64,000 bases of DNA, taken from positions 21,581 through 85,580 of the forward strand of contig JACPZZ010000017.1 of NCBI GenBank assembly GCA_016195275.1, in the 5' to 3' direction. This DNA is from Candidatus Aenigmatarchaeota archaeon. Its GTDB lineage: Archaea > Aenigmatarchaeota > Aenigmatarchaeia > JACPZZ01. Each line of letters opens with the position of its first letter. The first letter of the stretch is position 1. The position numbers and the translations under genes were made by a program. A model generated the notes under the pieces. That model was not told the DNA's origin and did not search any database. It was given only the letters and a program-made list of their open reading frames with translations. This document shows positions 25,558 through 52,937 of this stretch, piece after piece.

Positions 25558-26830
25558 TTAGCCCTCATTAAGGCGTTGCCAATTACACTGCGTCACTGAA
25601 ACGAAATAGAACGCAGTCAGGGGTCTTGGGGAAGGCTTGCCTGCGCATAGGGCGATGGATGCCGGACCGGAGCGATTCGCAGAGAAGCGAGGGAAGAAAG
25701 GCATCGCTCGTTTGCGCTCTCCACATCGGACGACACTGTGGCGATGCCCTGACACAAATCGGCGGCGGTCTAAGCCCGACGCCATAAATGAATGTGAGCC
25801 GCATTGCGACCCAGAGTCTTTGTTCCGATCATTAACCATGTCTCTTACATCTTTCCGACCTGTTTCATCCCTGAAACTGATCGCGTAAGGGGATGGGTTC
25901 GGGAAACCGCGAGAGGTTTTCCGATAGGGCTTCCGAGTGAGCGCAAGCGAGCTCGCCGAGCGGAGCGAGGGGAGAAGCCCGTGAGGGTTACGGGAGCGCA
26001 GTCTCCCGATTACAAAATGGGCGGCGTCCGCCCCAATTACGCCACGGTTAGAGGGCAACAGGTGTCCCCACCGTTGCCTCTCTTTCCGATACCAGGCGTC
26101 ATCGATTGAGCCTGCAATCGCTCTGGCGATGTCCAGGCCGAACTTGCTGTCGAACCGGACGACCTGAACCTCGTCGGGTTCGTCCCAGTACAGTCGGAAT
26201 TCCTCCTCTTGGAAATCGACCAGCACTTTGGGAAGTCCTCCCTTCGATTTCGTTTGTCTGCAATTTCACAGACACCACCTCCACACACCTATTCGCGAAT
26301 CCCCGCTTGAAGCTTTCATCAGAAAGATTCAAGAACGGGGATGAGCGGTCACTTGTGGAGGTGGTGTGAAATACAGACTGAAATTGCAAGAGGGGAAGGT
26401 TTGCGAACCTTGCCCGGTCTTCCACGTCCTCGCCCGCTATCCCTTCGCCTTCCGCCCAGAGGATACGATCCGAGTAGCCCGCACCATACGAGGGATACTT
26501 TGGCTCGCGTATCCGGTAGGAGCTTCTCTCACGCCTATACGAGAGCCACAGGTTCTCGATCAGGTGGTAGGCTCTTGGCCGCCACATTCGGTATCCGGTC
26601 ATTCCGTTCGCCCTGCCTTCCTCAGCTCGCGCAGCAGTAGCTTTCCTTTCGGGCTGTCGAACGGCACGAACTCAAGAGGTCTGTCCCAACAGAACTTTCG
26701 GAACGTCCTGAGCCGAAAGTCCACGTTGTACCCATTCCACTTCAGAAACCGCCTCATACGCTCACCCCTGTTTAGGGAGAGGAACGGGGCTTCTTCCCCT
26801 TCCTTCTTTTCTTTTCAATCAACCAGATGC
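25558..26830 (-). other. decayed coding region (broken ORFs, frameshifted fragments)
   Basis: Minus-strand translations give conserved-looking stretches (MRRFLKWNGYNVDFRLRTFRKF...; MWRPRAYHLIENLWLSYRRERSSY...; MLVDFQEEEFRLYWDEPDEVQVVRF...) interrupted by stops or frame changes; also contains a degenerate copy of the island repeat at 25891-25928. Confidence 0.35.
25891..25928 (+). repeat. island repeat element, degenerate copy f
   Basis: gggttcgggaaaccgcgagaggttttccgatagg aligns to the CGGGAAACCG...AGGTTTCCGG core of copy a. Confidence 0.4.
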
Positions 26831-26833
26831 GGG

Positions 26834-27319
26834 TCATGCTTTCACCGCCGCTGCGGATTGCGAAGAAGAGGGCGCATCCTCCTTCTCCGTCTCCACCGTG
26901 CTACAGGTGGATGGCTTGGCATTTACTTTGCCGAGCAGCCACTCGGCGAAGTTGTCAGCCAACTTCTTCACACCGTCCGATGACAGCCCAGTCGGTGCCC
27001 AGCACGTTGCTGCGGCTTTCAAAGCGACTGAGTAGACCATCAAGGTCTCCCGTTCGTAGAGGCCGAAGCCCCTTGGAACGGTGTCCGACAGCTTGGCAGT
27101 CGGGGTCTCCACGACCTCAATCGCCTTAATGTTTCGGAACTTCCCGTTCTCCACATAGGCGATGGCCACCTGCTGTCCTTCTTTCACCGGACACTCTTTC
27201 TCGAAGGCGCTGTAATACTCGCCCCCGACCCTGACGGCGTACCGGTCTGGGTTTCTCCAGACCAACTCCACGCGGCCTGCCGTCAGCCGCATCCCCCTTT
27301 TTTCTTCTTTCCCTGACAT
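26834..27319 (-). CDS. hypothetical protein
   Basis: 161-aa ORF with coding-like composition (MSGKEEKRGMRLTAGRVELVWRNPDRYAVRVGGEYY...). Confidence 0.4.
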   Translation of the reverse strand: MSGKEEKRGMRLTAGRVELVWRNPDRYAVRVGGEYYSAFEKECPVKEGQQVAIAYVENGKFRNIKAIEVVETPTAKLSDTVPRGFGLYERETLMVYSVALKAAATCWAPTGLSSDGVKKLADNFAEWLLGKVNAKPSTCSTVETEKEDAPSSSQSAAAVKA

Positions 27320-27450
27320 GTTCTCTCAACTCCTTGGGATGGCTTCTTTTCGAGCCACCCCTGCTTTTTCGTTTACTTCAGTCGTGGTCGGCGCAGGCGA
27401 GGCGACCCTCACACTGAGTGCAGAGAGGAGAAACCGAGAATATGCCCAGC

Positions 27451-27521
27451 GGGGCTTATCTCGGTTTAGCCCGCCTGCGCGAGGGAAGGCCGAGCACGGG
27501 AAACCGTAGGTTTCCGGTGCC
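27451..27521 (+). repeat. island repeat element copy a (extended about 70 nt; core 27481-27521)
   Basis: ggggcttatctcggtttagccc...gagggaaggccgagcacgggaaaccgtaggtttccggtgcc; the core is nested in an outer inverted repeat CCTGCGCG...CGCGgagCGCAGG. Confidence 0.6.
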
Positions 27522-27739
27522 TTCGCGCGGAGCGCAGGTTGACCTCTAGCTGACTCTTCATCCCTCTTTCTCCGAATTGAGGAACCTGACAAGGGTGGAC
27601 GGCGCGACTTTTTCCCTGTCCGCTCTCCCAAGCTCACTCCTTACGAGTTCCTCGATCTGCCCGAGATGGGTCTTGCTCTCGCTCAGGACGATCACGCTCG
27701 CGCAGCCCAGGTTTTGGATGTTCCTCTGGTTCTCTCTTG

Positions 27740-29899: not shown

Positions 29900-30255
29900 T
29901 TCCAGCCCGCGTTAAGGAACCCCGGGTGCCCGCATTCAGCGCAGACCGGGCGATGGCACTTCCCGCATTCCTTGCTGGTCGCGCAATCTCCGCACATGAC
30001 ATGCAGGCACCTGTAGCAGGCGCACGTCGCGATCTCGGGAGATCGAAAGACCTTTTGGCACCCTTTGCAAAGCCCGGCGCGTATGGTTGTGGTGAAGCCG
30101 TTCTTCGCTGTGGGAGCCTCGACCTCGAAGACTCGCTGGCCCAATTTCACGTGGTCGAGCAGGATCCAGGCCGAATTGCCACCAGCAGACTGCGGGTCTG
30201 CTGGAAAGTTGGGCCGCATCCCCGTACCCCCCTGGCCGGACTCAGTAGCACTCAT
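29878..30255 (-). CDS. Cys-rich small protein, paralog 1 (6 CxxC pairs)
   Basis: 125 aa; N-terminal VKLGQRVFEVEAPTAKNGFTTTIRAGLCKGC then CxxC repeats; paralogous to the next gene (VKVGQKVFEVEEPSARNGFTRTIKAGICKGC); overlaps the ATPase start. Confidence 0.55.
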   Translation of the reverse strand: MSATESGQGGTGMRPNFPADPQSAGGNSAWILLDHVKLGQRVFEVEAPTAKNGFTTTIRAGLCKGCQKVFRSPEIATCACYRCLHVMCGDCATSKECGKCHRPVCAECGHPGFLNAGWNCKGRCD

Positions 30256-30607
30256 TGCAGTGCCACTCCTCTGTCAGGCCATCTTCACCACCACAATCCG
30301 GGCACACCGGCCGTCGGCATATCGCGCATCTCTTCTGCTCTTTGCACTCCGAACACATCACATAATGGCAGCGGCAGCATGAAGTCCTGGCCGCGTTCGC
30401 GGACTGGAAGATGTCTTCGCAGCCCTTGCAAATCCCGGCCTTGATAGTCCTCGTGAAGCCGTTCCTGGCAGAAGGCTCCTCGACCTCGAAGACCTTCTGA
30501 CCGACCTTCACGTAGTCCATCGTGAGGTAGACTGTGTTGTCTGCCACGTTGGGACTGACCATGCCTGGTTGCCCGGACCCAGTGCCCATCCTCGTGTCGA
30601 GTTCCAT
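30242..30607 (-). CDS. Cys-rich small protein, paralog 2
   Basis: 121 aa; same two-domain layout as paralog 1; 14-nt overlap with paralog 1. Confidence 0.55.
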   Translation of the reverse strand: MELDTRMGTGSGQPGMVSPNVADNTVYLTMDYVKVGQKVFEVEEPSARNGFTRTIKAGICKGCEDIFQSANAARTSCCRCHYVMCSECKEQKRCAICRRPVCPDCGGEDGLTEEWHCNECY

Positions 30608-31017
30608 GCTGAACCTCCTATCTGGCTCTTACCTTGGCAAATTGGGCAAACTGCTGACCCTCCGCTCATTTGGGCGCAGCGTGAGCAGGCCTGGCGGCCG
30701 CACACGCATCTGAAACGGGGTGCGCAGTACGTGCAGAGAATGAAGCCGTCGAACATGCACATCGACCCGGCTTCAGCCTCGGACTTTATGAGATCGCCCG
30801 TCCCGGCGCACGTCGCCACCTGAATCTGGGTCTCGTTGATGAGCACTCCGTCTTCGCGGAGGTCAACGACCTGCACCTCCGCGTACGGTGATCTGCCGAT
30901 ACCTGCCGGCCCAATCGGCACCATTCGTCGCACAGTTACGGTTCGCACTGGCTGTGTCACTTCGCTAGGTCTTCCGAAACTCACCCCTGGCACGTTGTTG
31001 GGGTTTGGCGTTACCAT
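30508..31017 (-). CDS. Cys-rich small protein, paralog 3 (divergent)
   Basis: 169 aa; preceded by AGGAGGTG RBS; central Cys cluster CTYCAPRFRCVCGRQACSRCAQ...CPICQG. Confidence 0.5.
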   Translation of the reverse strand: MVTPNPNNVPGVSFGRPSEVTQPVRTVTVRRMVPIGPAGIGRSPYAEVQVVDLREDGVLINETQIQVATCAGTGDLIKSEAEAGSMCMFDGFILCTYCAPRFRCVCGRQACSRCAQMSGGSAVCPICQGKSQIGGSAWNSTRGWALGPGNQAWSVPTWQTTQSTSRWTT

Positions 31018-31027
31018 CGTTCACCTC

Positions 31028-31354: not shown

Positions 31355-31364
31355 CCTTCACCTC

Positions 31365-31598
31365 CTAGAATCCGTCGCATGACTTGTATCCGGACCTGAC
31401 GCAGAACACGCACGCCCTAGCCTTGACCATCTGCTCGCCGCAGCCAGGACAAGCCTCGCCATCGCCAGACGCAACGCCGACATCTACACGAGGTCCGCCA
31501 CCATCGCCACCCTCGGTAGGGAGACGAACGTTGCTGTTGCGGATGCCAATACTGGAAATCCTCGTCCCTTCCTTTTGAGCCTCCATAGGCGTCTCCAA
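31365..31598 (-). CDS. small zinc-ribbon protein
   Basis: 77 aa; CPGCGEQ...CVFC ribbon; same strand and spacing as the operon. Confidence 0.4.
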   Translation of the reverse strand: METPMEAQKEGTRISSIGIRNSNVRLPTEGGDGGGPRVDVGVASGDGEACPGCGEQMVKARACVFCVRSGYKSCDGF

Positions 31599-32408: not shown

Positions 32409-35400
32409 ATGGCAAGCCAAGGTCGTCCTCACACCAGAGCTCCGTGGAAAGACAAGATCCTGATTTGGCAGGAATACTATAGGAACCGAGTCATTAAACG
32501 AGTGGCTGAGGACCTCAGCTTCCAAAAGGCGGATGGCGAATGGTATGGCTATAGCGAGGACACCGTAGCAAGAATAATCAAGGAGTTGGACTACATCTCC
32601 GAAGAAGATGCGGCGAGTCTGTCATCAGAGATTCAAGAACTCAGACGTAGCCGTACACAGGCACCAAACCAACAGGCGTCGCCACAACAAATCGGTCAAC
32701 AATCAGACTACAAAGTTGATTTGCAAGCACTCCGGCAGTCTTGTTCGGATGGGCTCAGGGCTCACCTTGATCGGCATTCGGTAGAGTTTAATAGCAAAAG
32801 CTACGTACCACGCGCCGCCATTGAAGGGGAATTCCGCGAGTTCTTAGATTCGACAAAGCTTTGTTTTCCCATCATTGGCGAAGCAGGCATGGGCAAGACA
32901 ACTTTGCTTTGCCATTTAGCAGACGAGTACTCGCATAGAACCGAACAGCACCCAGACCATTTAGTTTGGGTGTTGTCCGCGAGACCGCTGGCCAATATTC
33001 GCGATCACCCGTTGCGTACGGCGGTAGGCGAGGAAGCGACGGACGTGGGAGCTGCGATCAAGAGCCACCTCTCACGGCACCTCAGCATGGTCGATGTCAC
33101 TAAGAGATCAGAGGTTGACTTCACGGAGGTCGTGGAAGCTCTCTATCGTGAGTTAAGAGACACCGGCGACAAGAAGTTCATCGTGTTAATCGACGCGCTG
33201 AACGAACACCCCCAGGCTGACAAGCTAATTGCATCGCTGGACTCAGCGGTGGCAAGCCTCGCGGACCTCTCCGATGAACTCGATGGCCTCTCAAGGCGCT
33301 TCAAGATCTGTGTGACGTGCCGACCATATTCGTGGCACCGGGCTATCAGCGAAGAACTCCATAGCAGGATCAGGTATTCCCATTATCATGCCCTGCAAGA
33401 GCAGAACTTATTGCCCCAAGTGACTCTTGGAGAATACTCAGAGCAGGAGCTTCAAACGATTTACGAAGGGACAAAGGTTATCACAGACGATGGGAGACGA
33501 TCGGAGTTGCGCCCGGAGTTCACAGCCTTGAAAAGGGACGCCCCCAAGTGGATCAATCGACTATCCGACCCCTACCTGTTCGCCTGCGCGATAGAGGTGG
33601 CAAGGAAGAATGACGGTTATATCCCTCTAGGCTTAACCAAGGCTCAAATGCTGAGAGCCTATATCGACCGGCTGACCAACAATGACAAAGTAGCGCAGAG
33701 ACTCCTCGCGGAAATAACAGAGCGCATGCGGGTGACCATGAGTCCCCAACTGACTCGGCGCGAATTGGAGAGTTGCGCGCAAAGGCTCACCTTGGACCTC
33801 GATGCTCCTGACTCCCCCTATAACCGTCTGATAGATGCAGGAATTCTCCAAGAGTTGAACGATGCGACGAACGACCCGACCCAACTAGCGGTGGGTATCC
33901 GCAACGACCGCATCCTGGAGTACCTCTTGTATGAGCGTCTCAAGCTGCTTCAGCAAGATGTTACGCACATCCGCGATACGCTGATACAAGCGGAATTGTA
34001 CCCTCAGTTGTGGGCTGCCTTGCATACCCTATTCGTTGAAGACTGGGATCAAGCCACCGTTAGTCAACTGGCCGCCATCCGCAACGAGGACCAAACGGCC
34101 CCCGTCGTTGTTCGGGCCTTTATTCCAGGCGTATGTCGCGAAGTGTACAAAGACCGGCCGAAGGAGGTGAATGACCTCGTCCAGACTCTCTTGAAGTCGA
34201 GCGACAATGTGGCATTGATGATGGCAGTGGCGGTTGCCTATACTGTCAAGGACACGGACGGTCTGCTTCAAGCGTTGCAAAACAAGAGCTTAGTTGCACA
34301 GAGACTGGCCATCCAATACTCGTATCTTTTTTGGCGGGCTCACCGTAAGAATGGCTACGCCCTGTTAAACAGATTAAGTGACCGAATATCCGTGGCACCT
34401 GATAGGAAAACAATCCAAGCGTTCGTTGACCTTAGCGTGGCGATCGGAACCAAGCATTTTCGACAACCAGAAATCCGAGAGGAAATTATTGCACTGGCAC
34501 AACGCACGGCTCACGGGTTGATGCACCCCGATCTGAGGAAATCCGGGTTGAATCCCGCCCAGAGGATGAAGAGGCGAGCCGCTAGCTTAATCCTTCGAGC
34601 ATCAACGTCGTTTGCCGGTGGTCCTCTCGTCAATGCAGCGGCTGTTTACTTGGAGAAAACGCTCCGTGTCGCCGAGGACAACAACACCATAGGTAACTAT
34701 TCGGACGTAGCCGCCTTCTTCAAACACGTGCCGCCCCGCGATAGACACCCATATAAAGTGCTGTTGAATTTTTGGGGGCCAGAAGAAGCCAATCTCGTTA
34801 AATTGCGAAACATCATTTGTGATTTGGCGCACAGGCAAGATGGTGTGTTCTACTCCCTCGCAGCCGGGGCTTTGGTCATCCAAGCCTACTATCGACCCGA
34901 AGCTGCACTCAAGATGTTCAATGAGGTTTACGATAGTGCCGAGCAGAATGCGCTTCAAAAACGGCTGGTGCTACGGGCGTCCGATGTCTTGTCTCCACTG
35001 GCCAGCGGAAAGCATCTGAACTCCCAACTCCGGTCCCACAGCGACCTAGTCCGGAGGTTCATCGATGAAACAGCAGGCCGGTGCACCGTGGCAGGCCACA
35101 ATCGGACCATGTGCGGAGTACCGCTTTATCACACTTCGTTAGTAGAAGTTTCTTCACGCGGTAGCTTGACTATCCTGCCCGACGCTATTACTAAAGCTCT
35201 GGTACGGAATGACCCCGAGCTGCTCGTGTCATTAGCTGAAGTTATTAACCAAATGGTCTGGTATATTGAGCCAGAACGCGTCCTCTCACTCAGGGAGTCA
35301 CTGCTTTGGCTACTCGCTTACGGGGACAATCCCCAAGGGAACGTGTACCAAGCTGCGCTGCGCACCGTTGCCACCTTAGCTCTGATATATCCGGATGCAG

Positions 35401-35675
35401 GTGAAGACGTCATTGCAGCAATCGCCAACAAAGAGGAACGGCAACGAGTCAGGAGCGGACTCAAACGCATTGCGGCGGACGAATTGGTCACCCCCGTGAG
35501 CGTTTACTTGGGCGGGATGCACGATGCGGGCATATATACGCTGCTTTCGTCTGACGGTGACGCAGTACGACGATTAGTCGTCGAGATATTGAACGCCGGA
35601 TTGAACGAGAAAACCGTACATGGTCTCATGCGGCTAGTTGCGCGTAGGAGCCTTAAACTATTGCAAGCTACGTAG
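32409..35675 (+). CDS. NACHT-like STAND NTPase with long C-terminal HEAT/ARM-like helical repeat region
   Basis: 1088 aa; about 150-aa N-terminal region, Walker A CFPIIGEAGMGKTTLLCHL, Walker B FIVLIDALNE; more than 600 aa of helical repeats. Confidence 0.75.
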   Translation: MASQGRPHTRAPWKDKILIWQEYYRNRVIKRVAEDLSFQKADGEWYGYSEDTVARIIKELDYISEEDAASLSSEIQELRRSRTQAPNQQASPQQIGQQSDYKVDLQALRQSCSDGLRAHLDRHSVEFNSKSYVPRAAIEGEFREFLDSTKLCFPIIGEAGMGKTTLLCHLADEYSHRTEQHPDHLVWVLSARPLANIRDHPLRTAVGEEATDVGAAIKSHLSRHLSMVDVTKRSEVDFTEVVEALYRELRDTGDKKFIVLIDALNEHPQADKLIASLDSAVASLADLSDELDGLSRRFKICVTCRPYSWHRAISEELHSRIRYSHYHALQEQNLLPQVTLGEYSEQELQTIYEGTKVITDDGRRSELRPEFTALKRDAPKWINRLSDPYLFACAIEVARKNDGYIPLGLTKAQMLRAYIDRLTNNDKVAQRLLAEITERMRVTMSPQLTRRELESCAQRLTLDLDAPDSPYNRLIDAGILQELNDATNDPTQLAVGIRNDRILEYLLYERLKLLQQDVTHIRDTLIQAELYPQLWAALHTLFVEDWDQATVSQLAAIRNEDQTAPVVVRAFIPGVCREVYKDRPKEVNDLVQTLLKSSDNVALMMAVAVAYTVKDTDGLLQALQNKSLVAQRLAIQYSYLFWRAHRKNGYALLNRLSDRISVAPDRKTIQAFVDLSVAIGTKHFRQPEIREEIIALAQRTAHGLMHPDLRKSGLNPAQRMKRRAASLILRASTSFAGGPLVNAAAVYLEKTLRVAEDNNTIGNYSDVAAFFKHVPPRDRHPYKVLLNFWGPEEANLVKLRNIICDLAHRQDGVFYSLAAGALVIQAYYRPEAALKMFNEVYDSAEQNALQKRLVLRASDVLSPLASGKHLNSQLRSHSDLVRRFIDETAGRCTVAGHNRTMCGVPLYHTSLVEVSSRGSLTILPDAITKALVRNDPELLVSLAEVINQMVWYIEPERVLSLRESLLWLLAYGDNPQGNVYQAALRTVATLALIYPDAGEDVIAAIANKEERQRVRSGLKRIAADELVTPVSVYLGGMHDAGIYTLLSSDGDAVRRLVVEILNAGLNEKTVHGLMRLVARRSLKLLQAT

Positions 35676-36340: not shown

Positions 36341-36577
36341 CTAACATCGGCCTGAACAATTCTCAGAAGTGTGCACCCTGGCCCGGCCACAACACACAAA
36401 CTGCAAAATGCCGCAGTGCTCAACGAGCGTTGCGTTGTGTGCGGAGCTGAACACCAATCGCAGGCCCGCCGTCTCCTTGCAGAAACCGCACATCGGATGA
36501 CCGTCCTGAGTCCACTTGCACCTCGGCAGGACCTGGACCATCGCCTGCCCGTTGATTGTGACAACGCCGTCTCTCAT
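36341..36577 (-). CDS. small Cys-containing protein (cassette copy 1, gene B)
   Basis: About 78 aa from MRDGVVTINGQAMVQVLPRCKWTQDGHPMCGFC...; conserved in copy 2 with conservative substitutions; start overlaps the stop of gene A (ATGA). Confidence 0.45.
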   Translation of the reverse strand: MRDGVVTINGQAMVQVLPRCKWTQDGHPMCGFCKETAGLRLVFSSAHNATLVEHCGILQFVCCGRARVHTSENCSGRC

Positions 36578-36939
36578 ACGGTGCGACCCCCGCACGTCAC
36601 GCACGTCATCGGAATCGCTTCCCCCGTACCTTTGATCTTCGGACACCTGCAATGTTCGCAGTCGCACAGTTCGTCGGCCGGGCGACGTCTCCCCGACCAA
36701 ACGAGCGCCCGCTTTGGTATCTCCCAAATCCGACCGCCGAGAGACGTTAGCTCAGACTCGCGGAAGTATCCCAACTCTTCATCGAAGCCTTGGTCCAACC
36801 CGAAGTACAAGACATCTGCGTCTGTCTTTTCTGTGACCTCAGTCGCGAACCAAAACCAGCCAATGTAGCTTTCGAAGCCCTTGATAACCTCCTTGCCGTC
36901 GATGTACAACTTCCCGTCCCTTTCCTCAAACTTTGCCAT
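36574..36939 (-). CDS. conserved hypothetical protein with C-terminal zinc ribbon (cassette copy 1, gene A)
   Basis: About 121 aa from MAKFEERDGKLYIDGKEVIKGFESYIGWFWFATE...ADELCDCEHCRCPKIKGTGEAIPMTCVTCGG; start trimmed from the ORF-track start (37083) to the Met conserved in copy 2. Confidence 0.55.
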   Translation of the reverse strand: MAKFEERDGKLYIDGKEVIKGFESYIGWFWFATEVTEKTDADVLYFGLDQGFDEELGYFRESELTSLGGRIWEIPKRALVWSGRRRPADELCDCEHCRCPKIKGTGEAIPMTCVTCGGRTV

Positions 36940-37112
36940 GTTGATCCCCCCCCCCTTGGCGATGCTCTTTGGCACCACCCTACTTGCTGGCTTACCAGTT
37001 CCCCCATGCTGAGGGGGATAGGGGGTGCAGGGATCGCACCGTATCCACACTGCGACCCGCACACCCACGACAAAGCGGGGCAAGCCAGAATAACCCTAGC
37101 GGGAGGACCGAG

Positions 37113-37183
37113 CGCGGGTTATCTGGATTGAGCACTACACTGGAGGGAAAGCCGAGCACGGAAAACCGAAGGTTGTCGGTGCC
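37113..37183 (+). repeat. island repeat element copy b (core 37142-37183)
   Basis: gcgggttatctggattgagcac...ggagggaaagccgagcacggaaaaccgaaggttgtcggtgcc. Confidence 0.6.
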
Positions 37184-40983: not shown

Positions 40984-41664
40984 GTGATTGTCATGAAATT
41001 GAGGCAGTTTTACGAGGATTTGCAGGACAGATGGGCAGGCAGCCTGGTCAAAGTTCAGTATTTGGACCATCCTCACGCCAAGGAATACATGTACCGGTTA
41101 GCTAGAGAAGGCTTGGTGGAAAATGTTGCATGGGGCTGGTACTGGGTGCCAGCTCAGTTGGAAGATGTTTGGGACTTTCTCGCCAACGATAAAAACTTCA
41201 AAGTGATTGCTGGCCAGACTGCTGCCTCTCTCTGGAATGGAGACTTTGTTCACCGCGAGCTCTATCTGGTAAAGGTTAAGGATCGCTCTTACGGCCAAGC
41301 ATTAAAGGCCTTTGGTGAAGGAAAGGGCTGGGACCTTGAGGTAGAAGTAGCCCGCAAACCTCCAGCCTACACCAAGATTGACGGCCTGCTGGTCGAGACC
41401 ATCGACGAGACTATCCTGGACTGCCTGAGCAGGTGGGCTTTTCTGGATGCCTTTGCCATTCTGCATGAACATCCGGAGATAGATTTCAGAACAGTGGCAA
41501 AACAGGGCTACTGGCAACGCTTGCCCGGCACACACATCAGGCTGAAACCGGTGCTGGAATACGGGTATTCCAGACTCACAGGACGCAAGAGTAGACCGCT
41601 GGCAGACCCATTCGTGGCGAGGGAAGTGGAAGAAGCGGTGGAAAAGGTGATGGAGATTGGCTAG
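40984..41664 (+). CDS. AbiEi-like antitoxin / transcriptional regulator (type IV TA, abortive infection)
   Basis: 226 aa; N-terminal wHTH-like region; immediately upstream of, and overlapping (8 nt), an AbiEii-type nucleotidyltransferase. Confidence 0.55.
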   Translation: MIVMKLRQFYEDLQDRWAGSLVKVQYLDHPHAKEYMYRLAREGLVENVAWGWYWVPAQLEDVWDFLANDKNFKVIAGQTAASLWNGDFVHRELYLVKVKDRSYGQALKAFGEGKGWDLEVEVARKPPAYTKIDGLLVETIDETILDCLSRWAFLDAFAILHEHPEIDFRTVAKQGYWQRLPGTHIRLKPVLEYGYSRLTGRKSRPLADPFVAREVEEAVEKVMEIG

Positions 41665-42394
41665 ACAGCTCAGGCTTGCCCATGCCCGGGAAGAGGTGAT
41701 TGCCGACCTTCTTAACAGGTTGGCCGAAAAGTCGCATGGCTTCAGTTCACCTAAACTGGTCCTCATCGGCGGATATGCCTTGAGGGCGTTTGTGCCCTTG
41801 TCCAGGTCCACCCGGGATTGCGACTTTGCCCTGCGGAAAGGACAGGATTGGCAGATTGACAGAATCCGCACATGGTTCTCAGACCTTGAGGTGCTCACTC
41901 TAGAGAAAAGGGATGACCATGGCTTTATGCGCTGCTTGAAGCTGATCAGAATCAATGACAGTACAGCCAGGGTCTCATTGGACTTCATGGAAGACAAAGT
42001 GGTGGGCAGAGATATGGAAGAGGTCATCAACTTGGATGCGAGGTTTGAAGGGGATGCCCAGAATGTGCGTATTACCATTGCCAACCAGCCAATTGATGTG
42101 GTGGTGCCATGCTACCGCGACTATTTCATACTGAAGGCCGTATCTGCCAGAAGAAGCGATATCCGTGATATAGCTGCGCTGGTGTGGAAGCTGGGCGTGC
42201 CTGAAGTGAAGCCAAGGTTAGAGGAGATACTGCCTTATCCCGATGTTTTTTACCGGAAGGTCAGGGAGGTCATCATTCCCGACATCGAGGATACCAGATT
42301 TATCCACTCGTGGCGCGGCACGTTTGTCACGACTGCGTTCTCTGAACAAGATAAACAAAATGTGATTGATGAGCTGAGGGAATTGTGCGGGTGA
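41657..42394 (+). CDS. AbiEii/AbiGii-family nucleotidyltransferase toxin (DUF1814-like)
   Basis: 245 aa; VLIGGYALRAF...TRDCDF polymerase-beta-type NTase motif (GG...DxD) in the position typical of AbiEii. Confidence 0.65.
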   Translation: MARQLRLAHAREEVIADLLNRLAEKSHGFSSPKLVLIGGYALRAFVPLSRSTRDCDFALRKGQDWQIDRIRTWFSDLEVLTLEKRDDHGFMRCLKLIRINDSTARVSLDFMEDKVVGRDMEEVINLDARFEGDAQNVRITIANQPIDVVVPCYRDYFILKAVSARRSDIRDIAALVWKLGVPEVKPRLEEILPYPDVFYRKVREVIIPDIEDTRFIHSWRGTFVTTAFSEQDKQNVIDELRELCG

Positions 42395-42418
42395 CTTTGA
42401 GGGCAGTGTGGTAAGCTG

Positions 42419-42739
42419 ATGGAAAATGAAGTGTTAATAGAATTGAAAGTGCCGCTTGATATGGTGGACGACCTGCGGAAGCTGGAACAGGTAGAGCACA
42501 TAGACAGGTCTACGGCAGTACGAAAGCTGCTTTACTCAGGTCTTCGTGAATGGAAACTCGAACATGCAGCTACGCTTTATAGGGATAACAGGGTGACCCT
42601 TGCGCGGGCAGCCGAAGAGGCAGGCGTCCCGGTGAGGGAGATGATGGAGTATTTCAGGCAGAAGAAAGTGCCCATGCAATATGACATGGACGATTTCGAG
42701 AAGGACCTGAAAGGGATTTACGAGCGACTCGGAAAATGA
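42419..42739 (+). CDS. small HTH protein, UPF0175-like putative antitoxin
   Basis: 106 aa; helical, C-terminal HTH-like TLARAAEEAGVPVREMMEYFRQ; weak assignment. Confidence 0.35.
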   Translation: MENEVLIELKVPLDMVDDLRKLEQVEHIDRSTAVRKLLYSGLREWKLEHAATLYRDNRVTLARAAEEAGVPVREMMEYFRQKKVPMQYDMDDFEKDLKGIYERLGK

Positions 42740-43968: not shown

Positions 43969-45015
43969 TCACCCTTCCTTCTTAACTCTCAACAGCCTGA
44001 TGTTACCCCTCATGTCCGCGCGCTCGCTCTCGATCAGTCCCACCGAGATTAAAGTTGCCACATACGCGGAAAATGTGCGCGAGGCGACCGGCCTCTTGCC
44101 AATATCCGAGCAATGCCTCAAGTAACCTTGCCACAACGTGTTGGAAAGCATACCTTCAGATCCTGAACCTTTGATTAGCTCGAATATGGCCCTGTGGTGC
44201 TCGGTCAGGCTCTGGAGCAGGTAACGCTGCTCCAGTTCTCTGGCAGACGTGAATCCTGACTCAACGTGTTGCGCCAGGATGACCCGGCTTCTGTCGGATT
44301 CAGCCAGCTCCGCAGCGTTGTTCAAGGTTTGAATCGCTACTCTGGCATCGCCGTCGGATAGCGATGCGATCCTGCCCAGCGTTTCCTGATCCCAGGAACC
44401 GGAAACAAGCGCTTCCCTTGCCCTCTGCTCAACCATGCCTACAAGCTCTTCGGCACTGTACGGCTCGAAAGCGATCTGCCTTAACGCAACCCTTGATAAA
44501 ACCCTCGGGTCCACATTCATCAAAAAGTAGCGCGAATTACAGATGGCGACCAACCCTACGCTGCCGATCCTTGCAAGGTTGTAGAGAATGGCATTTCTCT
44601 CTTTCGGGGCGGGTTTGTCTATCTCGTCCAGGACGATGACGAAAGGTTTGTTGCCGATGCTCCTTTCAAAGCGTTCCAGCTTCAAAGCCGCCTCGGTTTT
44701 GTCGGCGAACATGATGCGAAGCTCTTTGACAATCTCATCAGCCACCAGGTACAGGGAGTTGTGCTTCCACCAGTTTATGTAAACAGATTGGATAGGAGAC
44801 TCTCGCCTCAGGCGTTGCAGGGCCCACCGGGCCACAGCGGTCTTGCCTGTTCCAGGATTACCGTACAGCCAGATATTAACAGGCTTCCGGTGTTTCAATG
44901 CCGGAGCGAGGCGTAGATTAAGCTGATGGATTTGCTCCTCCCTGCCTGACAAGGACGCCGGCATATATTCTTCTGAAAGGACCGCAGGCTCCCTGATGAT
45001 GCGAATCTCTTCCAT
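43969..45015 (-). CDS. Orc1/Cdc6-family AAA+ replication initiator with C-terminal winged helix
   Basis: 348 aa; Walker A LYGNPGTGKTAVA, Walker B VVLDEIDK, sensor ICNSRYF, C-terminal wH; archaeal plasmid/virus-type initiator. Confidence 0.85.
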   Translation of the reverse strand: MEEIRIIREPAVLSEEYMPASLSGREEQIHQLNLRLAPALKHRKPVNIWLYGNPGTGKTAVARWALQRLRRESPIQSVYINWWKHNSLYLVADEIVKELRIMFADKTEAALKLERFERSIGNKPFVIVLDEIDKPAPKERNAILYNLARIGSVGLVAICNSRYFLMNVDPRVLSRVALRQIAFEPYSAEELVGMVEQRAREALVSGSWDQETLGRIASLSDGDARVAIQTLNNAAELAESDRSRVILAQHVESGFTSARELEQRYLLQSLTEHHRAIFELIKGSGSEGMLSNTLWQGYLRHCSDIGKRPVASRTFSAYVATLISVGLIESERADMRGNIRLLRVKKEG

Positions 45016-46253: not shown

Positions 46254-46281
46254 GAAATGGAAAACCGAAGGTTGTTGGTGC
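46254..46281 (+). repeat. island repeat element copy c (3' half only)
   Basis: aaatggaaaaccgaaggttgttggtgcg matches the GGAAAACCGAAGGTTGTCGGTGCC half of copy b. Confidence 0.5.
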
Positions 46282-46453
46282 GTGTTCTTATTTCGGTCAC
46301 AAGCCGGGGGCAGATCAAGTAGCAAGATCCAGGATGGACTGCCGCATGACATAGGAGGTTGGCTTTGTTGAAACCCAAGAATGGAAATCGCGCTGAGTCC
46401 CGTTTGAACTATCCCCTCAGCGATCAGGGCCGCTTACCTGCTGATTCGAGCAG

Positions 46454-46861: not shown

Positions 46862-46863
46862 TG

Positions 46864-48534: not shown

Positions 48535-49109
48535 GCGTTACACTCCGATGGCTTAGAGTCCTCCCTCGCCCACGCCGCGGTCTATGGACCGCCCTTTAGA
48601 GTAAAGACTAGGCGACCCACAGTCCGGTGAACGAACACAACCTTGAGACAGTAACGTTCGGTGTGGAAAACACCACCACCCTTAACTGATACGCTCAACT
48701 GTCTGCCTCCCGTTGTTCTTCCCAGAGTACCCTAATAAACGAGGGAGAAGCCCTTCTCATGCGGTACATTGCTCTCCCAAAACTATCGCGTCTGGTAGGT
48801 CACTATGGCAACTCACTAAAGTTGCTCCAACAGAAATATCTGGAGCGGATTGGCACTGTCACGATCCTGGCCTGACCGTCACCTCTGTAAAACACGCCAG
48901 GGCCGGAACCTTGCGTCGTGTGACACCTCAGCGCCAGCCCGCGTTCGCCCCCAAGCCCACTATTGTCGTCCAAGTACCCCACCTTAGTATAGTCGACCAG
49001 TATTTCCGTGTCAATACTTTGAATCTCCCCTAATGATACATTGGTGCAATTCTCACGGAACACCAGATGCAACCCCGAGGCAACAATAGTGTTCTAACCT
49101 GCTGGATCA

Positions 49110-50372
49110 TCAACTTGCAAATGCCACAGTGAACATGTCGGATTGGAAACTACGACTTCCAACCCACGCTCGAATGCACACTTTTTGCTCCCCTATGGCA
49201 AGTCTTTTCGGTATCTGGAAGTAAACCGTGTGAGTCTCAACGTCGCTTATCACATAAGTAGGCAAGGCCAATGTGTCCAGCCAGTTTCCCCTAATGAAGA
49301 CCTGTACCCTTTGCAGTTGCGATGGCTGCGATACCCTAAAGGTCACTACCACCGCCAAGTTTATGTCATGGGTGGTCTCACTAAGACCGCCAATGGCTGG
49401 GTTCCCGCCCGAAAGCAGCATATATCTTTGAACTTCGACCTCCAGAGAGCCTTGTTCCCGGTCCGCCAATTCTTCATTGGGCGGCCGAAGAATTTGTCGT
49501 GTTACCCTGCCTCCAGGCAACACTCTAACCTTGTCACCAGTGTCTTCCTGCATTCCATCGGGGAACTTACCTCGCAATGTTAGCTTCGTAAGAAACACCC
49601 GGACGAAAGTCGCTGCTACACCCGCCGCGTAGTGTCTCCATAGAGCCCTCTGTTCAGACGCGCCCAAGCCTGCTCCGTCAGACGTCAAACCGGGCACGTC
49701 AGAAATACCACGTATCATCAGGGCTCCGATCGACTGCTTTGACTGAGTAAGACGTATCGCTGAACCTACGCCAGTACCCTCCATCTCGATCGCGTCGGCT
49801 TCAGGAATCCCCTTCCTCAGATCCTGAACAAGGGGATAGTTAAGGTCGTCGACAGTTGCGTTGATGGAAACTACATATCCACTGTCTACTTTGGGAGTTC
49901 GCTTTTCTTCCGGCTTCGGCCAAGCTATCCCCACGTTATCCACCCATTCCGGACTCATTTTAGCTATGAGCTCCGCGTGTTCTAGCAGAGTTCTGTCAGG
50001 CCTCCAATCTTGGTCAGGCCTTCTCTTGAAGCTCCCGCCAATTATTTTCCCGACCACGCCATACACATTGCTGGCGATTATAACGTCCCCATGACGAAAT
50101 TTACCATCTGGAAAGCCTCCAGCGATACCGACGATGAGCACCCACCTGGGTTCAAACGTTGTGATAACCTGTTGCAATGACGACGCGGCGTTCTCCTGAT
50201 ATTTACCCACCTGCACACAGACTACCTGGAACTTCCCAATTTGGCCTCGCTTGGCGGGGAGGAGTTGATCTATAGGATCGAATGAATGGCCTAGTTGGCT
50301 AGCCATCGCAGCCCATTCCTCAGGCAAAGGGCACGCGAGCAAGAAGTCCACTGAGCTATGATCACTGCTCAT
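49110..50372 (-). CDS. PNP/MTAN-family (PNP_UDP_1) nucleosidase/phosphorylase domain fused to about 180-aa unknown C-terminal domain
   Basis: 420 aa; LIVGIAGGFPDG, AIEMEGTGVG, MIRGISDVPG, the three signature blocks of the MTA/SAH nucleosidase/purine nucleoside phosphorylase fold; C-terminal beta-rich domain without matches. Confidence 0.7.
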   Translation of the reverse strand: MSSDHSSVDFLLACPLPEEWAAMASQLGHSFDPIDQLLPAKRGQIGKFQVVCVQVGKYQENAASSLQQVITTFEPRWVLIVGIAGGFPDGKFRHGDVIIASNVYGVVGKIIGGSFKRRPDQDWRPDRTLLEHAELIAKMSPEWVDNVGIAWPKPEEKRTPKVDSGYVVSINATVDDLNYPLVQDLRKGIPEADAIEMEGTGVGSAIRLTQSKQSIGALMIRGISDVPGLTSDGAGLGASEQRALWRHYAAGVAATFVRVFLTKLTLRGKFPDGMQEDTGDKVRVLPGGRVTRQILRPPNEELADREQGSLEVEVQRYMLLSGGNPAIGGLSETTHDINLAVVVTFRVSQPSQLQRVQVFIRGNWLDTLALPTYVISDVETHTVYFQIPKRLAIGEQKVCIRAWVGSRSFQSDMFTVAFAS

Positions 50373-50701
50373 AGGGACACCTCCTAATGTTCGCTACGCT
50401 ACTGGTGGCCCAATCCTACATGTGGCCTGGCTCCGAGTCAAGAATCCTGGCCTGGAGTGCGTCTCACCATTCGATGACAAAATACCCAACTGGAGCGGCG
50501 TCAGTAGTTACCTCGTGCCCAACTGCATTCACCCTGATGGCGATCTCAGCGGCAAACCGAGAGCCCGATGCAGTTGTGGCTGACCGCACGTGGGGCTAGT
50601 TAGAAAGTCCCCTTCGTCTTCGGATCAGCCATATCTTCCTCTGCCGCATGAAATAGTCGATTGCGGCAATTATACTCTCTCTGGCCTGCGGCTTCATCAC
50701 C

Positions 50702-50920
50702 TCAACCACTACAACCCCCTGCCTCTGCCCAGCCGCAACGCACAAACTGCACGATCCCGCAATGCTCCAACAGCGTCGCATCGTGCGCACTGCTGTAAAC
50801 GAGTCGTATTCCGGCGGCACCGCAGAAACCGCACCACACCCGACCGTCTCCGGTCCTCTTGCACCTCGGCAATACCTGAACCATCGCCCGGCCGTTGATC
50901 GTGACCACGCTGTCGCTCAT
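50702..50920 (-). CDS. small Cys-containing protein (cassette copy 2, gene B)
   Basis: About 72 aa from MSDSVVTINGRAMVQVLPRCKRTGDGRVWCGFC...; paralog of 36341-36577. Confidence 0.45.
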   Translation of the reverse strand: MSDSVVTINGRAMVQVLPRCKRTGDGRVWCGFCGAAGIRLVYSSAHDATLLEHCGIVQFVRCGWAEAGGCSG

Positions 50921-51282
50921 ACGTTGCAGCCACCGCAGGACACACACGTCGTCGGGATCGCTTCTCTTGTGCCGCTTATCTTGGGACACCTGCAATGTTC
51001 GCAGTCGCACAGTTCGTCGGCCGGGCGGCGTCTCCCCGACCATACGAGCGCCCGCTTTGGTATCTCCCAAATCCGACCGCCAAGAGACTTTAGCTCGGAC
51101 TCACGGAAGTAACCCCACTTCTCCTCGAAGCCCTGCACGAACCCGAAGTACAAGACATCGGCGTCTGTCTTCTCAGTGATCTCGGTTGCAAACCAGTACC
51201 AGCCGCCGAAGCTCTCGAAGCCTTTGATGACCTCCTCGCCGTCGATGTACAGCTTTCCATCTTTGTCCTCAAACTTTGGCAT
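50917..51282 (-). CDS. conserved hypothetical protein with C-terminal zinc ribbon (cassette copy 2, gene A)
   Basis: About 121 aa from MPKFEDKDGKLYIDGEEVIKGFESFGGWYWFATE...ADELCDCEHCRCPKISGTREAIPTTCVSCGG; about 80% identical to copy 1. Confidence 0.55.
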   Translation of the reverse strand: MPKFEDKDGKLYIDGEEVIKGFESFGGWYWFATEITEKTDADVLYFGFVQGFEEKWGYFRESELKSLGGRIWEIPKRALVWSGRRRPADELCDCEHCRCPKISGTREAIPTTCVSCGGCNV

Positions 51283-51461
51283 TCCTAACACGCTCCTTAG
51301 GCGACCTTCTTCGAGGCCACCTCTACTTGCGTGCTTACTTCTTGATCGTTGCCCCCTGCGGGGGCCAGGGGCGGAGTGGGGGTATTGGCCTTGATGGTGT
51401 GAACGCACAATATGCCTAGCTCGACGAAGGAGAGCGGCTTATGTGCGTTCAGCACGACGCA

Positions 51462-51498
51462 TGGAAAGGCGACATGGGAAACAGCAGGTTTCCGGTAG
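51462..51498 (+). repeat. island repeat element copy e
   Basis: ggaaaggcgacatgggaaacagcaggtttccggtagc, preceded by gcggcttatgtgcgttcagcac matching the extended 5' part of copies a and b. Confidence 0.5.
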
Positions 51499-51505
51499 CT
51501 CCAAG

Positions 51506-52852
51506 CTATTCAGTTGTCCGACCGCAGGTCGACACTTCGACATCGCTTCTCTTCTCACTGATCCTTTTGGCCGCCATCTGCACGTATTCCGGCTTGAGGT
51601 CCACGCCCCCGAAGTTACGGCCAAGCGCGGCTGCCACAACACCGACTGTTCCAGACCCCATGAACGGGTCGAGCACCAGCGCGGGCGCAATTTCCGAACC
51701 TGAGCATTGGCAGGTAGCCTGCCATCCCAGGGTGCGCGTCGTCCTGAGTCTTCTCACTTCATAAGGCCGGGCAGCACCCCCCAGAAGCGGCACGCCTTTT
51801 CGAGTCATGTTGTTGTTCCCCCGGCCAGCGTCCACATAAGAGACGGAAACTTTTCGGCGCCGGGGAGCGCCACATGAAGAACAGCATCCTGCCTCGCTGC
51901 TGCCAGTCAGGATGCACCGCCTTGCCAGCGCCTCCGGAAACGTTGCGAAATGCGCACCAGGAAAGGGCTGTGTCGGAATGGTCCACACGCTACGAATGTT
52001 CCTGCCCCGACCGTCGTCCGACCACGGTACGCAGCTCGCGATGTGGCGGTTCGTTCTCGACCGCTCCCCAAGTTTGGCAACGAAGCGCCGAACATTCCCG
52101 CTGCTTTTGTCCTTCTCTACGACAGGCTCCCTGGCAGCCTCCTGGTCGAACAGATAGGTCGCGCTTTTGGTCAGCAAGAAAACGTACTCGTGCGCCTTGG
52201 TGGGTCTGTCGCGCACGCTCTCCGGCATGGGATTCGGTTTTGCCCAAATGACATCGGATCGAAGCCACCACCTGTCCGCCTGCAAAGCGAACGCAACACG
52301 CCAGGGCATACCCACAAGGTCCTTCGGCTTGAGGCCGGAACCTTTGCGGTTGTACGGCCTGAGATAGGTATCGCCTTTCTTCCCGTCCCTGAAGTCGCCG
52401 CCAGGAGAACCGCTGCCCGCGTAGCAGTCACCCAGGTTCAGCCAGAACGTCCCGTCGCTTCTGAGAACCCGCCAGACTTCCCTGGCCACCTCGGTGATGT
52501 GCTGGACGTACATCTCCGGTGTATGCTCCAACCCAAGCGATCCTCGCCACGCAGTGCAGAGCGAGCAGAAAGCACTGGGTTGTGGCGCACACGCGGTAGC
52601 ATGGACCTTGCCAGGATCAAATCGGCCTCCACTGTACCAACCGTTCGTATTTCCTCCGCTTCCTAACTTCGTGGACGGAGGCTTACCATTGCCCCATTGA
52701 TGAACGCATCCGGCATCGCCTCCCCAAACGCTCGGCGGCAGACCGTAATCGCGCAACCCCCAATACGGCGGGCTGGTTACCACGCAATGGACGCTTCCAT
52801 CTTTGAGAGGGAGGTGACGAGCGTCACCGACATATAGTTGGCTCCGGAGCAA
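51506..52852 (-). CDS. DNA methyltransferase, N6-adenine/N4-cytosine type (beta class; motif IV before motif I)
   Basis: 448 aa; VVTSPPYWGLRDY (motif IV, SPPY) near the N-terminus and LDPFMGSGTVGVVA (motif I) near the C-terminus; no adjacent restriction endonuclease recognised. Confidence 0.8.
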   Translation of the reverse strand: MLRSQLYVGDARHLPLKDGSVHCVVTSPPYWGLRDYGLPPSVWGGDAGCVHQWGNGKPPSTKLGSGGNTNGWYSGGRFDPGKVHATACAPQPSAFCSLCTAWRGSLGLEHTPEMYVQHITEVAREVWRVLRSDGTFWLNLGDCYAGSGSPGGDFRDGKKGDTYLRPYNRKGSGLKPKDLVGMPWRVAFALQADRWWLRSDVIWAKPNPMPESVRDRPTKAHEYVFLLTKSATYLFDQEAAREPVVEKDKSSGNVRRFVAKLGERSRTNRHIASCVPWSDDGRGRNIRSVWTIPTQPFPGAHFATFPEALARRCILTGSSEAGCCSSCGAPRRRKVSVSYVDAGRGNNNMTRKGVPLLGGAARPYEVRRLRTTRTLGWQATCQCSGSEIAPALVLDPFMGSGTVGVVAAALGRNFGGVDLKPEYVQMAAKRISEKRSDVEVSTCGRTTE

Positions 52853-52895
52853 GGCAATCCCTTAGAGAATCGGCCTGACAGCAGAAAGCCCTTGC

Positions 52896-52937
52896 GGGGA
52901 GGGAAAGCCGAGCACAGAAACTGTGGGTGTCGGCACC
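52896..52937 (+). repeat. island repeat element copy d
   Basis: ggggagggaaagccgagcacagaaactgtgggtgtcggcacc; carries compensatory changes relative to copy b (CGG/CCG to CAG/CTG; TCGGT to TCGGC). Confidence 0.6.

Follow-up and report, generated by a model that had tools for sequence, protein, structure and literature searches.

The repeat described earlier in an archaeal mobile element as a set of six copies is here tentatively read as the upstream part of a modular cis-regulatory leader of about 200–250 nt. In the gene sense the full module is composed of P2′, a 40-nt segment conserved in sequence that corresponds to the core of the earlier note, the hairpin P1′, two variable hairpins and the hairpin P5, which stands just ahead of the Shine-Dalgarno sequence (SD) AAGGAG and the ATG codon. 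The module is carried by a 40.9-kb element that has inserted into a tRNA gene in an Aenigmarchaeota (DPANN) MAG, and a small clade of relatives of this element carries it too. No RNA family described so far corresponds to it, and it is absent from Rfam. Over the whole window, by which the entire analysed stretch of 64,000 nucleotides is meant, Rfam 15 gave two tRNA matches and nothing else at the gathering threshold, and at E values up to 10 the regions of copies a and b returned chance matches far below threshold (mir-1421, SNORA50, Vax2os1). Of the features expected of a cis-regulatory 5′ leader, covarying structure, a fixed position and a constant orientation upstream of an ORF were found, and transcription with the gene is supported for P5.

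Copies of the module and the genes that follow them

Coordinates of the copies, of the genes behind them and of the borders of the element are collected in Table 1.

Table 1. Copies of the module, downstream genes and boundaries of the element (window coordinates)
Feature	Position	Strand	Components and remarks
Full leader module a	27320–27521	−	P2′ 27481–27521, P1′ 27427–27474, variable hairpins, P5 27330–27364, SD AAGGAG
Full leader module b	36940–37183	−	P2′ 37143–37183, P1′ 37077–37137, P3/P4, P5 36951–36983
Full leader module c	51283–51499	−	P2′ 51459–51499, P1′ 51397–51457, P5 51293–51326
d-type leader	52853–52937	−	P2′ alone (52898–52937) and 45-nt spacer before TTG
Copy e	46257–46283	−	truncated P2′, only its 5′ half in gene sense, then an AT-rich stretch
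Copy f	25891–25928	−	GGAAAACC/GGTTTCC hairpin only; no significant kinship to other copies
161-aa gene after module a	26834–27319	−	ATG at 27319
121-aa gene after module b, HY051_02880	36574–36939	−	ATG at 36939; weak DUF2958 match and Zn-ribbon
Paralogous 121-aa gene after module c, HY051_02950	50917–51282	−	ATG at 51282
N6/N4 DNA methyltransferase after d-type leader	51506–52852	−	TTG start at 52852
Left attachment repeat	15737–15758	+	AAGCCTCAGGCGAGAATTGAAC; bounds the 40.9-kb integrated element
Right attachment repeat	56629–56650	+	3′ end of the intron-bearing tRNA
Target tRNA, intron-bearing	56630–56732	−	
Tyrosine integrase	55383–56582		adjoins the right attachment repeat

A degenerate 24-mer of the core matched at four places against 0.01 expected, and an nhmmer profile built from three sequences recovered a, b and c with E values from 4e-27 to 7e-32, d with 7e-4 and e with 0.014. 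In the covariance model module a scored 56 bits (E 4.5e-13), module b 76.6 bits and module c, whose P2′ is the most diverged copy, 81.4 bits. The repeat is thus real, as three full copies (a, b, c), one copy with P2 only (d) and one with truncated P2 (e), which is probably a remnant. The sixth proposed copy, f, had to be abandoned, as no profile detected it. Confinement to the island was borne out: nhmmer hits outside 25.9–52.9 kb were noise (E > 1), and otherwise the module occurs only in related mobile elements. The core motif does lie on the + strand in every copy from a to e, as each immediately precedes a minus-strand gene; the impression that its orientation is independent of neighbouring genes was therefore misleading. 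Nor is the conserved unit free-standing and 40–80 nt long, as first supposed, since it comprises the entire 200–250 nt.

Within the module P2′ and P1′ are connected on the gene strand by the linker TGTGnnnnGCTnAAC, and the variable hairpins are joined to P5 through GAAGTAAGC..GCAAGTAGG. The termini are GGCACC... and ...AAGGAG-N-ATG and form no TIR; in module b the role of SD is taken by a run of G10 after P5. Conservation stops sharply right after P2, and the copies are embedded in GC-rich leaders of unrelated genes. At least three types of gene starts carry the module, namely DUF2958-like/Zn-ribbon genes, an unrelated family of 161–171-aa proteins and, with P2′ alone, a DNA methyltransferase. 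The structure model of HY051_02880 predicts a small beta-barrel followed at the C terminus by a CxxC...CxxC tail; a fold search with this model gave no significant match, which counts against the leader reading. The reservation that the copies may be only parts of duplicated genes applies to b and c, which lie in a duplication of ~800 bp including the paralogous gene. Copies a and d, however, precede unrelated genes, and the repeat is therefore not merely a by-product of gene duplication.

Five independent metagenomic sequences also carry the module, there too ahead of homologous genes. It is colinear as a whole in a, b and c and at the external loci L003/L004, L005, L006–9, L067, L111/112 and L114, with P2 missing in L006 and P1 missing in the d-type leader, for which an ortholog is present at L114:6913-6990. 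In all external copies orientation to the downstream gene is constant, and the gene on the opposite side is unrelated every time. Copies a, c and that of L114 are flanked by co-directional genes, so that a read-through transcript would take in the module. Homologues of the 161-aa gene in L111–L115 adjoin the same VirB4/HerA-like ATPase. At 55 loci with more distant homologues of the 121-aa gene the module is missing; it is therefore a cassette and no part of the gene, and junctions of a half-P1 with a full P1 in L005 and L114 indicate recombination inside it.

Structural constraints on P1, P2 and P5

P1 is a hairpin of 19 bp. Its two bulges, of 1 nt and 2 nt, and its conserved mismatch keep to fixed sides, and its conserved core reads ATAAGCC/GGCWTAT. 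Its terminal loop is variable in length, the arms being 3 to at least 22 nt apart. Across nine distinct sequences 93.3% of the cells are paired and 9 of the 19 pairs show double-sided changes, values that were reached by none of 500 shuffles; sliding of the 3′ partner by 1–3 columns reduced pairing to 21–46%. The outer stem covaries even between copies within one genome. Preservation of the bulges and of the U·U/A·A mismatch in almost all copies speaks for an asymmetric structure under selection rather than a simple palindrome. The 5′ extension described in the earlier note is in fact the 3′ arm of this hairpin, which had been overlooked.

For P2 no such support was obtained. The nested two-helix model leaves 76% of cells paired with one compensatory pair and was equalled by 87 of 500 shuffles, while the rival long hairpin (81.5% paired) was equalled by 129 of 500. 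Covariation in P2 is non-significant, and the segment is conserved by sequence rather than by structure. The claim of a structured repeat with compensatory substitutions therefore proved true overall, owing to real covariation in P1, but the core helices proposed for it have no statistical support: the change from CGG/CCG to CAG/CTG is real (d and L003, with CACGG/CCGTG in L114), though it is the sole double change in the core.

P5 has eight pairs with compensatory changes in four of them and ~14 G·U pairs (15 of 68 pairs by a count made by hand), all in the gene sense, which makes the segment beside the gene sense RNA, i.e. mRNA. Transcription of P5 in the gene sense is thus supported by its pairing pattern, and G·U pairs read by eye in P3 of copy b and of L067 take the gene sense too. 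For P2′-P1′ we infer presence in the same transcript and a regulatory role. In the proposed mechanism the module would be co-transcribed with its gene, whether at the 5′ end of the message or between cistrons of an operon, and would control expression of this gene in cis. P5 might govern mRNA stability and SD presentation, while P1 with its asymmetric bulges would be a putative recognition site of a trans-acting factor, for which an element protein or a complementary RNA is a candidate. It counts against this leader reading that no promoter can be recognised at a constant distance ahead of P2′.

DNA-level and antisense alternatives

Read on the + strand, 154 pairs of P1 include 151 Watson-Crick, three G·U (G·T) and no A·C pairs, which in the gene sense become no G·U and three A·C. 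By comparison with ~20% of G·U in P5 this disproportion speaks against the leader, as does the MFE of the P2′-P1′ segment, lower on the + strand in eight of nine sequences; the latter may be a simple effect of G-richness of the + strand. P1, with P2, might instead be a hairpin of + strand DNA, the template strand of the served genes, active when single-stranded or extruded as a cruciform and used as a promoter or priming site, with transcription beginning at the hairpin base and producing the P3–P5 leader. We regard this as unlikely; with the antisense RNA considered below it is the main rival of the leader. In its favour P1 is nearly pure in Watson-Crick pairs, unlike the neighbouring P5, one arm has conserved extrahelical bases and the terminal loop varies in length; all three G·T pairs also fall on the + strand, although a 3:0 count is weak evidence. 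Furthermore, sense-RNA P3 begins only ~10–15 nt past P1′, which leaves no space for a usual promoter, and none is visible. On the other hand, host and element look archaeal, judging by the score of Orc1/Cdc6 above the TIGR02928 cutoff and by the intron in the target tRNA, and single-stranded promoters are not known from archaea.

Hairpins do serve as the early promoters of phage N4, and Frpo/ssi single-strand promoters, whose template is single-stranded DNA that arrives by conjugation, were reportedly described by Masai and Arai in 1997. With the latter the module shares several copies on one strand before small establishment-type genes and methyltransferases, as well as a template-strand hairpin with conserved mismatches, at the foot of which RNA would begin. 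It differs in the stem of just ~19 bp, against a Frpo fold of ~300 nt whose stem restores −35 and −10 hexamers, in that the P1 stem shows neither −35/−10 elements nor clear TATA/BRE (no copy has a sigma-70-type site), in the lack of sequence similarity and in belonging to an archaeal element with an Orc1 initiator, in which no relaxase or oriT was identified. The one-strand copies before small genes and an orphan-type methyltransferase resemble leading regions of conjugative plasmids, which carry several Frpo copies (PMC11541004). The element also encodes a VirB4/HerA-like ATPase, but its VirB4 match is weak (22.9 bits, far under the cutoff of 590), and scanning of island ORFs turned up no relaxase or HUH protein. 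In the most specific version P1 (with P2) would do in archaea what single-strand DNA promoters or priming sites do elsewhere, starting early genes (DUF2958-like/Zn-ribbon, 161-aa, orphan methyltransferase) of a possibly transferable DPANN element from single-stranded or extruded DNA, which we consider decidedly unlikely.

Control by antisense RNA is common on mobile elements, as exemplified by the plasmid modules FinP/traJ, CopA/CopT and RNA I/RNA II, and phage HK022 has its put RNAs. P1-P2 may accordingly be imagined as a small cis-antisense RNA (countertranscript) of the + strand, pairing by its loops with the P2′-P1′ hairpins of the mRNA leader. If the helices must form on both strands, restriction of covariation to Watson-Crick pairs would be expected, and the two-hairpin unit with abrupt end of conservation after P2, as well as the slight folding preference of the + strand, conform to this idea. 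With such systems the module shares two neighbouring hairpins with covarying stems in 5′ leaders of genes on mobile elements, and its repetition at two or more transcription units within an element is reminiscent of putL/putR of HK022. Nevertheless, we consider it unlikely: upstream of P1 the + strand shows no promoter of TATA-like or sigma-70-like type, most copies have no T-run or terminator after P2, L006 is devoid of P2 and the d-type leader of P1. A countertranscript should have a promoter and 3′ end of its own; promoter-like or T-run signals were not seen beside P1-P2 on the + strand, though archaeal signals may be too faint. Unlike known antisense modules, it has no visible antisense promoter or terminator and no sequence or Rfam similarity to them, and, unlike in the put system, no terminators that an antiterminator could override were found.

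A selfish REP/MITE-like repeat, as was suggested initially, or a site for proteins on double-stranded DNA, for example an operator or a box for origin recognition by Orc1 (ORB), is very improbable, even though the unit is palindromic and multi-copy, P2 is conserved by sequence rather than structure, and two Orc1/Cdc6 genes of the island have c, d and e within a few kb. Terminal inverted repeats and target duplications are absent, the island ORFs scanned include no Y1 transposase (RAYT/TnpA), and every occurrence of the module is joined to a conserved 5′ leader and start codon, never free between genes. The variable gap between the P1 arms and within-genome covariation of the outer stem misfit a dimeric protein on B-form DNA. 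Copies have no adjoining AT-rich unwinding element, and as archaeal ORBs they were rejected: the leaders are GC-rich, a and b are 7–17 kb from the nearest orc1, and a covarying bulged hairpin is at variance with double-stranded recognition. For the P1-P2 part the other initial suggestion, a small structured RNA or a factor-binding site, is possible.

Least credible, and highly improbable, is an integron attC-like site or another ssDNA-folded site of a tyrosine recombinase marking gene cassettes. The stem base is AAC/GTT in five of the seven copies examined first, followed by a 5-bp segment and a conserved inner box, but attC boxes should read RYYYAAC ... GTTRRRY and pair over ~7 bp. The 5′ GCTnAAC fits roughly, while the 3′ flank has pyrimidines for purines (GTTTCYC or similar, e.g. 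GTTTCTC, CTTGCCC, GTTCACA, GTTTTCC) and only nAAC/GTTn′, 4 bp, pairs. The 5-nt segment is fully paired and covarying, so that there is no unpaired central spacer, and the extrahelical 1 nt and 2 nt lie on one arm, presumably, if aadA7 attC is taken as a guide, not the arm on which cassettes in their usual orientation would carry them. An attC array has about one site per cassette, less than ~4 kb apart, with IntI or as CALIN; here there are just three sites (27.4, 37.1 and 51.4 kb), separated by 9.6 and 14.3 kb with many genes in both orientations between them. The island integrase is XerA-like, XerA_Arch being its best model at a score itself below cutoff, and reaches 52.9 bits with the integron integrase model TIGR02249 (cutoff 265 bits). 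Integrons with attC sites have been reported for Archaea including Aenigmatarchaeota (PMC9668308). Conservation of structure above sequence, the AAC...GTT stem foot, extrahelical bases of one arm, variable terminal structure and single orientation are common to attC and P1, unlike GTTRRRY, the unpaired spacer, the array and IntI. Moreover, different “cassettes” of the island share the conserved P3–P5 mRNA leader downstream.

Comparison with mobile regulatory cassettes and significance

As a leader, the module resembles in behaviour PeSL (promoter-early stem-loop), which according to Arbiol et al. 2010 are said to be mobile regulatory cassettes of T4-type phages. Both are conserved stem-loop regulatory modules, present in several copies per genome, oriented with the genes and placed before small accessory ORFs, and both bear signs of inter-copy recombination, here the b/c duplication and the half-P1 junctions. 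The archaeal module is, however, far longer than the short PeSL (~200–250 nt, five hairpins), has no recognisable promoter and resides in an archaeal host, and it is not known to give mini-circles or shuffling products.

A sense-RNA hairpin beside a nearly pure Watson-Crick hairpin with fixed asymmetric bulges poses a testable question, whether this is a leader recognised by protein or RNA or a signal acting at the level of DNA. In the first case it would be one more cis-regulatory motif without known ligand or partner, in the second, archaeal elements would have their first example of a hairpin promoter or priming signal. Knowledge of gene control by mobile elements of DPANN is almost nil, and here a covarying structured non-coding module is well supported, which is portable between genes and which integrative elements of one small clade, from groundwater-type metagenomes, have in common.

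Delimitation of the repeat and its position relative to genes

Copies a, b and c are alignable over approximately 200–250 nt if read in the sense of the gene that follows each of them, and it is this length, rather than the 40–80 nt proposed in the earlier note, that makes up the conserved unit. On the gene strand the module is composed of segment P2′, which is the reverse complement of the previously described core, linker TGTGnnnnGCTnAAC, segment P1′, variable hairpins P3 and P4, the stretch GAAGTAAGC..GCAAGTAGG, hairpin P5, AAGGAG and ATG (P1 and P2 without prime designate the same segments on the + strand). The “5′ extension” noticed before is actually the 3′ arm of P1, whose 5′ arm was missed.

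A degenerate 24-mer gave 4 matches versus 0.01 expected. An nhmmer profile built from a, b and c returned these copies with E-values from 4e-27 to 7e-32, copy d with 7e-4 and copy e with 0.014, while elsewhere in the 64 kb it registered only noise (E > 1). It did not detect copy f, which has in common with the others only the GGAAAACC/GGTTTCC hairpin. Of the six claimed copies of a structured repeat, the core is retained at a–d and, truncated, at e, but f falls out. With the covariance model of P1 the window yielded three copies, no more, and the host flanks did not contribute any, which, together with the absence of anything but noise outside the copies, agrees with the claimed confinement to the island. 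The duplication that includes b and c is larger, spanning about 800 bp and taking in the paralogous genes HY051_02880 and HY051_02950, both located on one 123-kb contig of a MAG labelled Candidatus Aenigmarchaeota. The initial observation is partly confirmed, and it became stronger once the element was correctly delimited.

Every copy resides directly upstream of a minus-strand gene, e and f lying between minus-strand ORFs. That is why all of them appear on the + strand, and their orientation, previously considered as independent of the neighbouring genes, is in fact linked to them. In the gene of copy b the Shine-Dalgarno sequence is replaced by a run of ten G, which could be an artefact of assembly or the outcome of slippage or phase variation.

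Repeat copies and other features of the window
Feature	Positions	Strand	Basis or context
Copy a, core motif	27481-27521	+	sequence match; before 161-aa gene (minus strand, ATG at 27319)
Copy b, core motif	37143-37183	+	sequence match; before 121-aa paralogue (minus strand, ATG at 36939)
Copy c, core motif	51459-51499	+	sequence match; before 121-aa paralogue (minus strand, ATG at 51282)
Copy d, core motif	52898-52937	+	sequence match; 45 nt before methyltransferase start (minus strand, 52852)
Copy e, truncated core	46257-46283	+	sequence match; between minus-strand ORFs
Copy f	25891-25928		between minus-strand ORFs
Run of ten G	36946-36955	-	gene of copy b
22-nt direct repeat	15737-15758; 56629-56650		exact
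tRNA with insertion	56630-56732	-	Rfam, 52.9 bits
tRNA-Gly(GCC)	15879-15953	+	63% GC
Orc1/Cdc6	53719-54714	+	profile
Orc1/Cdc6	43969-45015	-	profile
TPR-BTAD STAND NTPase	18851-22057
NACHT NTPase	32409-35675
AbiEii/UPF0175 pair	41657-42739
PNP_UDP-family nucleosidase fusion	49110-50372
110-nt direct repeat	30047-30156; 30408-30517		73% identity; 361 nt apart

Secondary structure and the folding strand

Compensatory substitutions reported for the repeat are real, but it is P1, not the core, that carries the covariation exceeding shuffles. In nine distinct sequences this hairpin has 19 base pairs with 93.3% of cells paired and both-sided changes in 9 pairs (24 cells), and none of 500 shuffles matched the observed pairing, the number of doubly changed pairs or the covariation score. 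When the 3′ partner was shifted by 1–3 columns, pairing fell to 21–46%. In the + strand orientation P1 has two bulges, one of 1 nt (A) and the other of 2 nt (YA), together with a U.U mismatch, all at fixed places and in fixed arms, and its terminal loop varies from 3 to more than 20 nt, often having a covarying helix of its own. For P2 neither the two nested helices of the earlier note nor a long-hairpin alternative exceeded shuffles, each having one compensatory pair. This segment is conserved mainly as a sequence; by eye, a 33-nt stretch of it is identical in b and in the related metagenomic sequences L005 and L067 despite their differing P1.

Hairpin P5 (8 pairs, 4 of them compensatory) has about 14 G.U pairs, and since all of them are formed in the gene sense, P5 belongs to the mRNA. 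G.U pairs of P3 in b and L067, as read by eye, are also in the gene sense. P1, in contrast, is nearly free of them: 151 Watson-Crick pairs are accompanied by 3 G.U, all three on the + strand, so that the gene sense has 0 G.U and 3 A.C. P2 gave no signal when G.U was compared with A.C, the tallies being nearly even (8 to 9 and 6 to 5). Minimum free energies favoured the + strand for the P2′–P1′ segment in 8 of 9 sequences and the gene sense for P3–P5 in 6 of 9, but base composition confounds both estimates and this asymmetry is suggestive only; z-scores were mixed. The difference between G.U-rich P5 and P1 is the most interesting unexplained feature of the module. It is compatible with a helix that a protein recognizes, with one that each strand has to form, as antisense pairs do, or with a DNA hairpin.

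Portability of the module

Independent metagenomic sequences also have this module upstream of homologues, with its orientation to the gene unchanged (L003/L004/L071, L005, L111/L112 and L006–L009, the last group having P1 and lacking P2). In L067 it stands before a 42-aa gene with a Zn-ribbon only, and in L114 it is followed by a 161-aa gene homologue. A methyltransferase of L114 is in addition preceded by a d-type P2′ with an equal 45-nt spacer. The divergent genes that flank the module on its other side are all unrelated, showing no synteny, and 55 more distant homologue loci of the 121-aa protein (bacteria, archaea and viral contigs) have no module upstream. The module thus represents a portable cassette belonging to a narrow clade and does not characterize the gene family as such. 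In L005:1205-1283 and L114:8478-8563 it bears a recombination scar, an L006-type 5′ half of P1 passing into a complete P1 where a short GCGCTA repeat occurs.

In related elements the homologue of the 161-aa gene is preceded by another conserved leader, about 150 nt long (L111:9852-10001 and L115:2467-2626), with GGGCCGCTCGCTTCCTTCTTGACCGCG... and a GCCTAT...ATAGGC hairpin, so leaders have been swapped between elements.

In viral contigs the exact pattern GCCGAGCACGGRAAACCG gave two matches and the gapped P1 pattern 31, all by chance, and the P2 pattern none; in metagenome contigs the latter matched 13 times, and only L067 and L071 are real.

The integrated element

The exact 22-nt direct repeat AAGCCTCAGGCGAGAATTGAAC coincides with the 3′ end of a tRNA adjoined by a tyrosine integrase, and the island is therefore a 40.9-kb tRNA-integrated element bounded by these repeats as attachment sites. 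The anticodon loop of this tRNA, which was missed by ARAGORN in bacterial mode, is interrupted by about 30 extra nucleotides resembling an archaeal-type intron. The tRNA-Gly(GCC) gene just past the left repeat is inside the boundaries and therefore element-borne.

The element encodes two Orc1/Cdc6 proteins, one scoring above the TIGR02928 cutoff and the other truncated; the match of the plus-strand gene to the profile does not begin until position 118, so this gene is N-terminally truncated or divergent. Also encoded are a large serine recombinase, STAND NTPases, a DNA methyltransferase and an AbiEii pair, together with an IS, and a 719-aa ATPase is VirB4/HerA-like by weak matches only. The cargo looks like a defence island. 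The 110-nt direct repeat sits in the series of small ORFs, on the minus strand, that follows the gene of this ATPase. For the 121-aa protein the Pfam match to DUF2958 has E = 0.007 only, PHROGs and NCBIfam gave no match, and its AlphaFold model (pLDDT 81.5) found no PDB fold with E < 0.8.

Possible nature of the module

As the best explanation we tentatively favour a cis-regulatory leader, structured and modular, that an archaeal integrated element carries as a cassette. That P1–P2 is a strand-specific DNA hairpin signal, as the scarcity of G.U pairs in P1 permits, appears unlikely, and its role as a cis-antisense RNA, compatible with the same scarcity, is rather doubtful. Scans for sigma-70 promoters and intrinsic terminators revealed nothing at the copies, with counts equal to those in shuffles. 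AT-rich TATA-like motifs are present upstream of P2′ in operon-starting copies, but their distance varies from 0 to about 45 nt and therefore defines no transcription start site.

A REP/MITE-like repeat, suggested in the earlier note, an operator or an ORB is very improbable: the element has no TIR, TSD or RAYT and is fused to gene starts, while variable arm spacing and covariation disfavour recognition of double-stranded DNA. Integrons occur in Archaea (PMC9668308), and P1 resembles attC in its AAC/GTT foot, one-sided extrahelical bases and variable loop, but without GTTRRRY, unpaired spacer, array and IntI a recombination site of this type is hardly credible. Pairing of the CUUUCCCUCC tail or AACCUU loop with the Shine-Dalgarno sequence was rejected, the complementarity being too short and inconsistent; interpretations as a bulge-helix-bulge, a K-turn, domain V of a group II intron, a CRISPR-repeat-like sequence or a TnpB/IscB guide RNA were dropped for lack of the features that define them.

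Rfam has no match to the module. Its layout is similar to that of Frpo, multi-copy in leading regions, on one strand and upstream of small genes and methyltransferases (PMC11541004). It differs from Frpo in the absence of −35/−10 boxes, short stem and archaeal setting. In behaviour it comes nearest to mobile regulatory cassettes such as T4-type PeSLs and to the leader or antisense modules with two hairpins known from plasmids and phages. The module is an undescribed example of an already known kind of feature.
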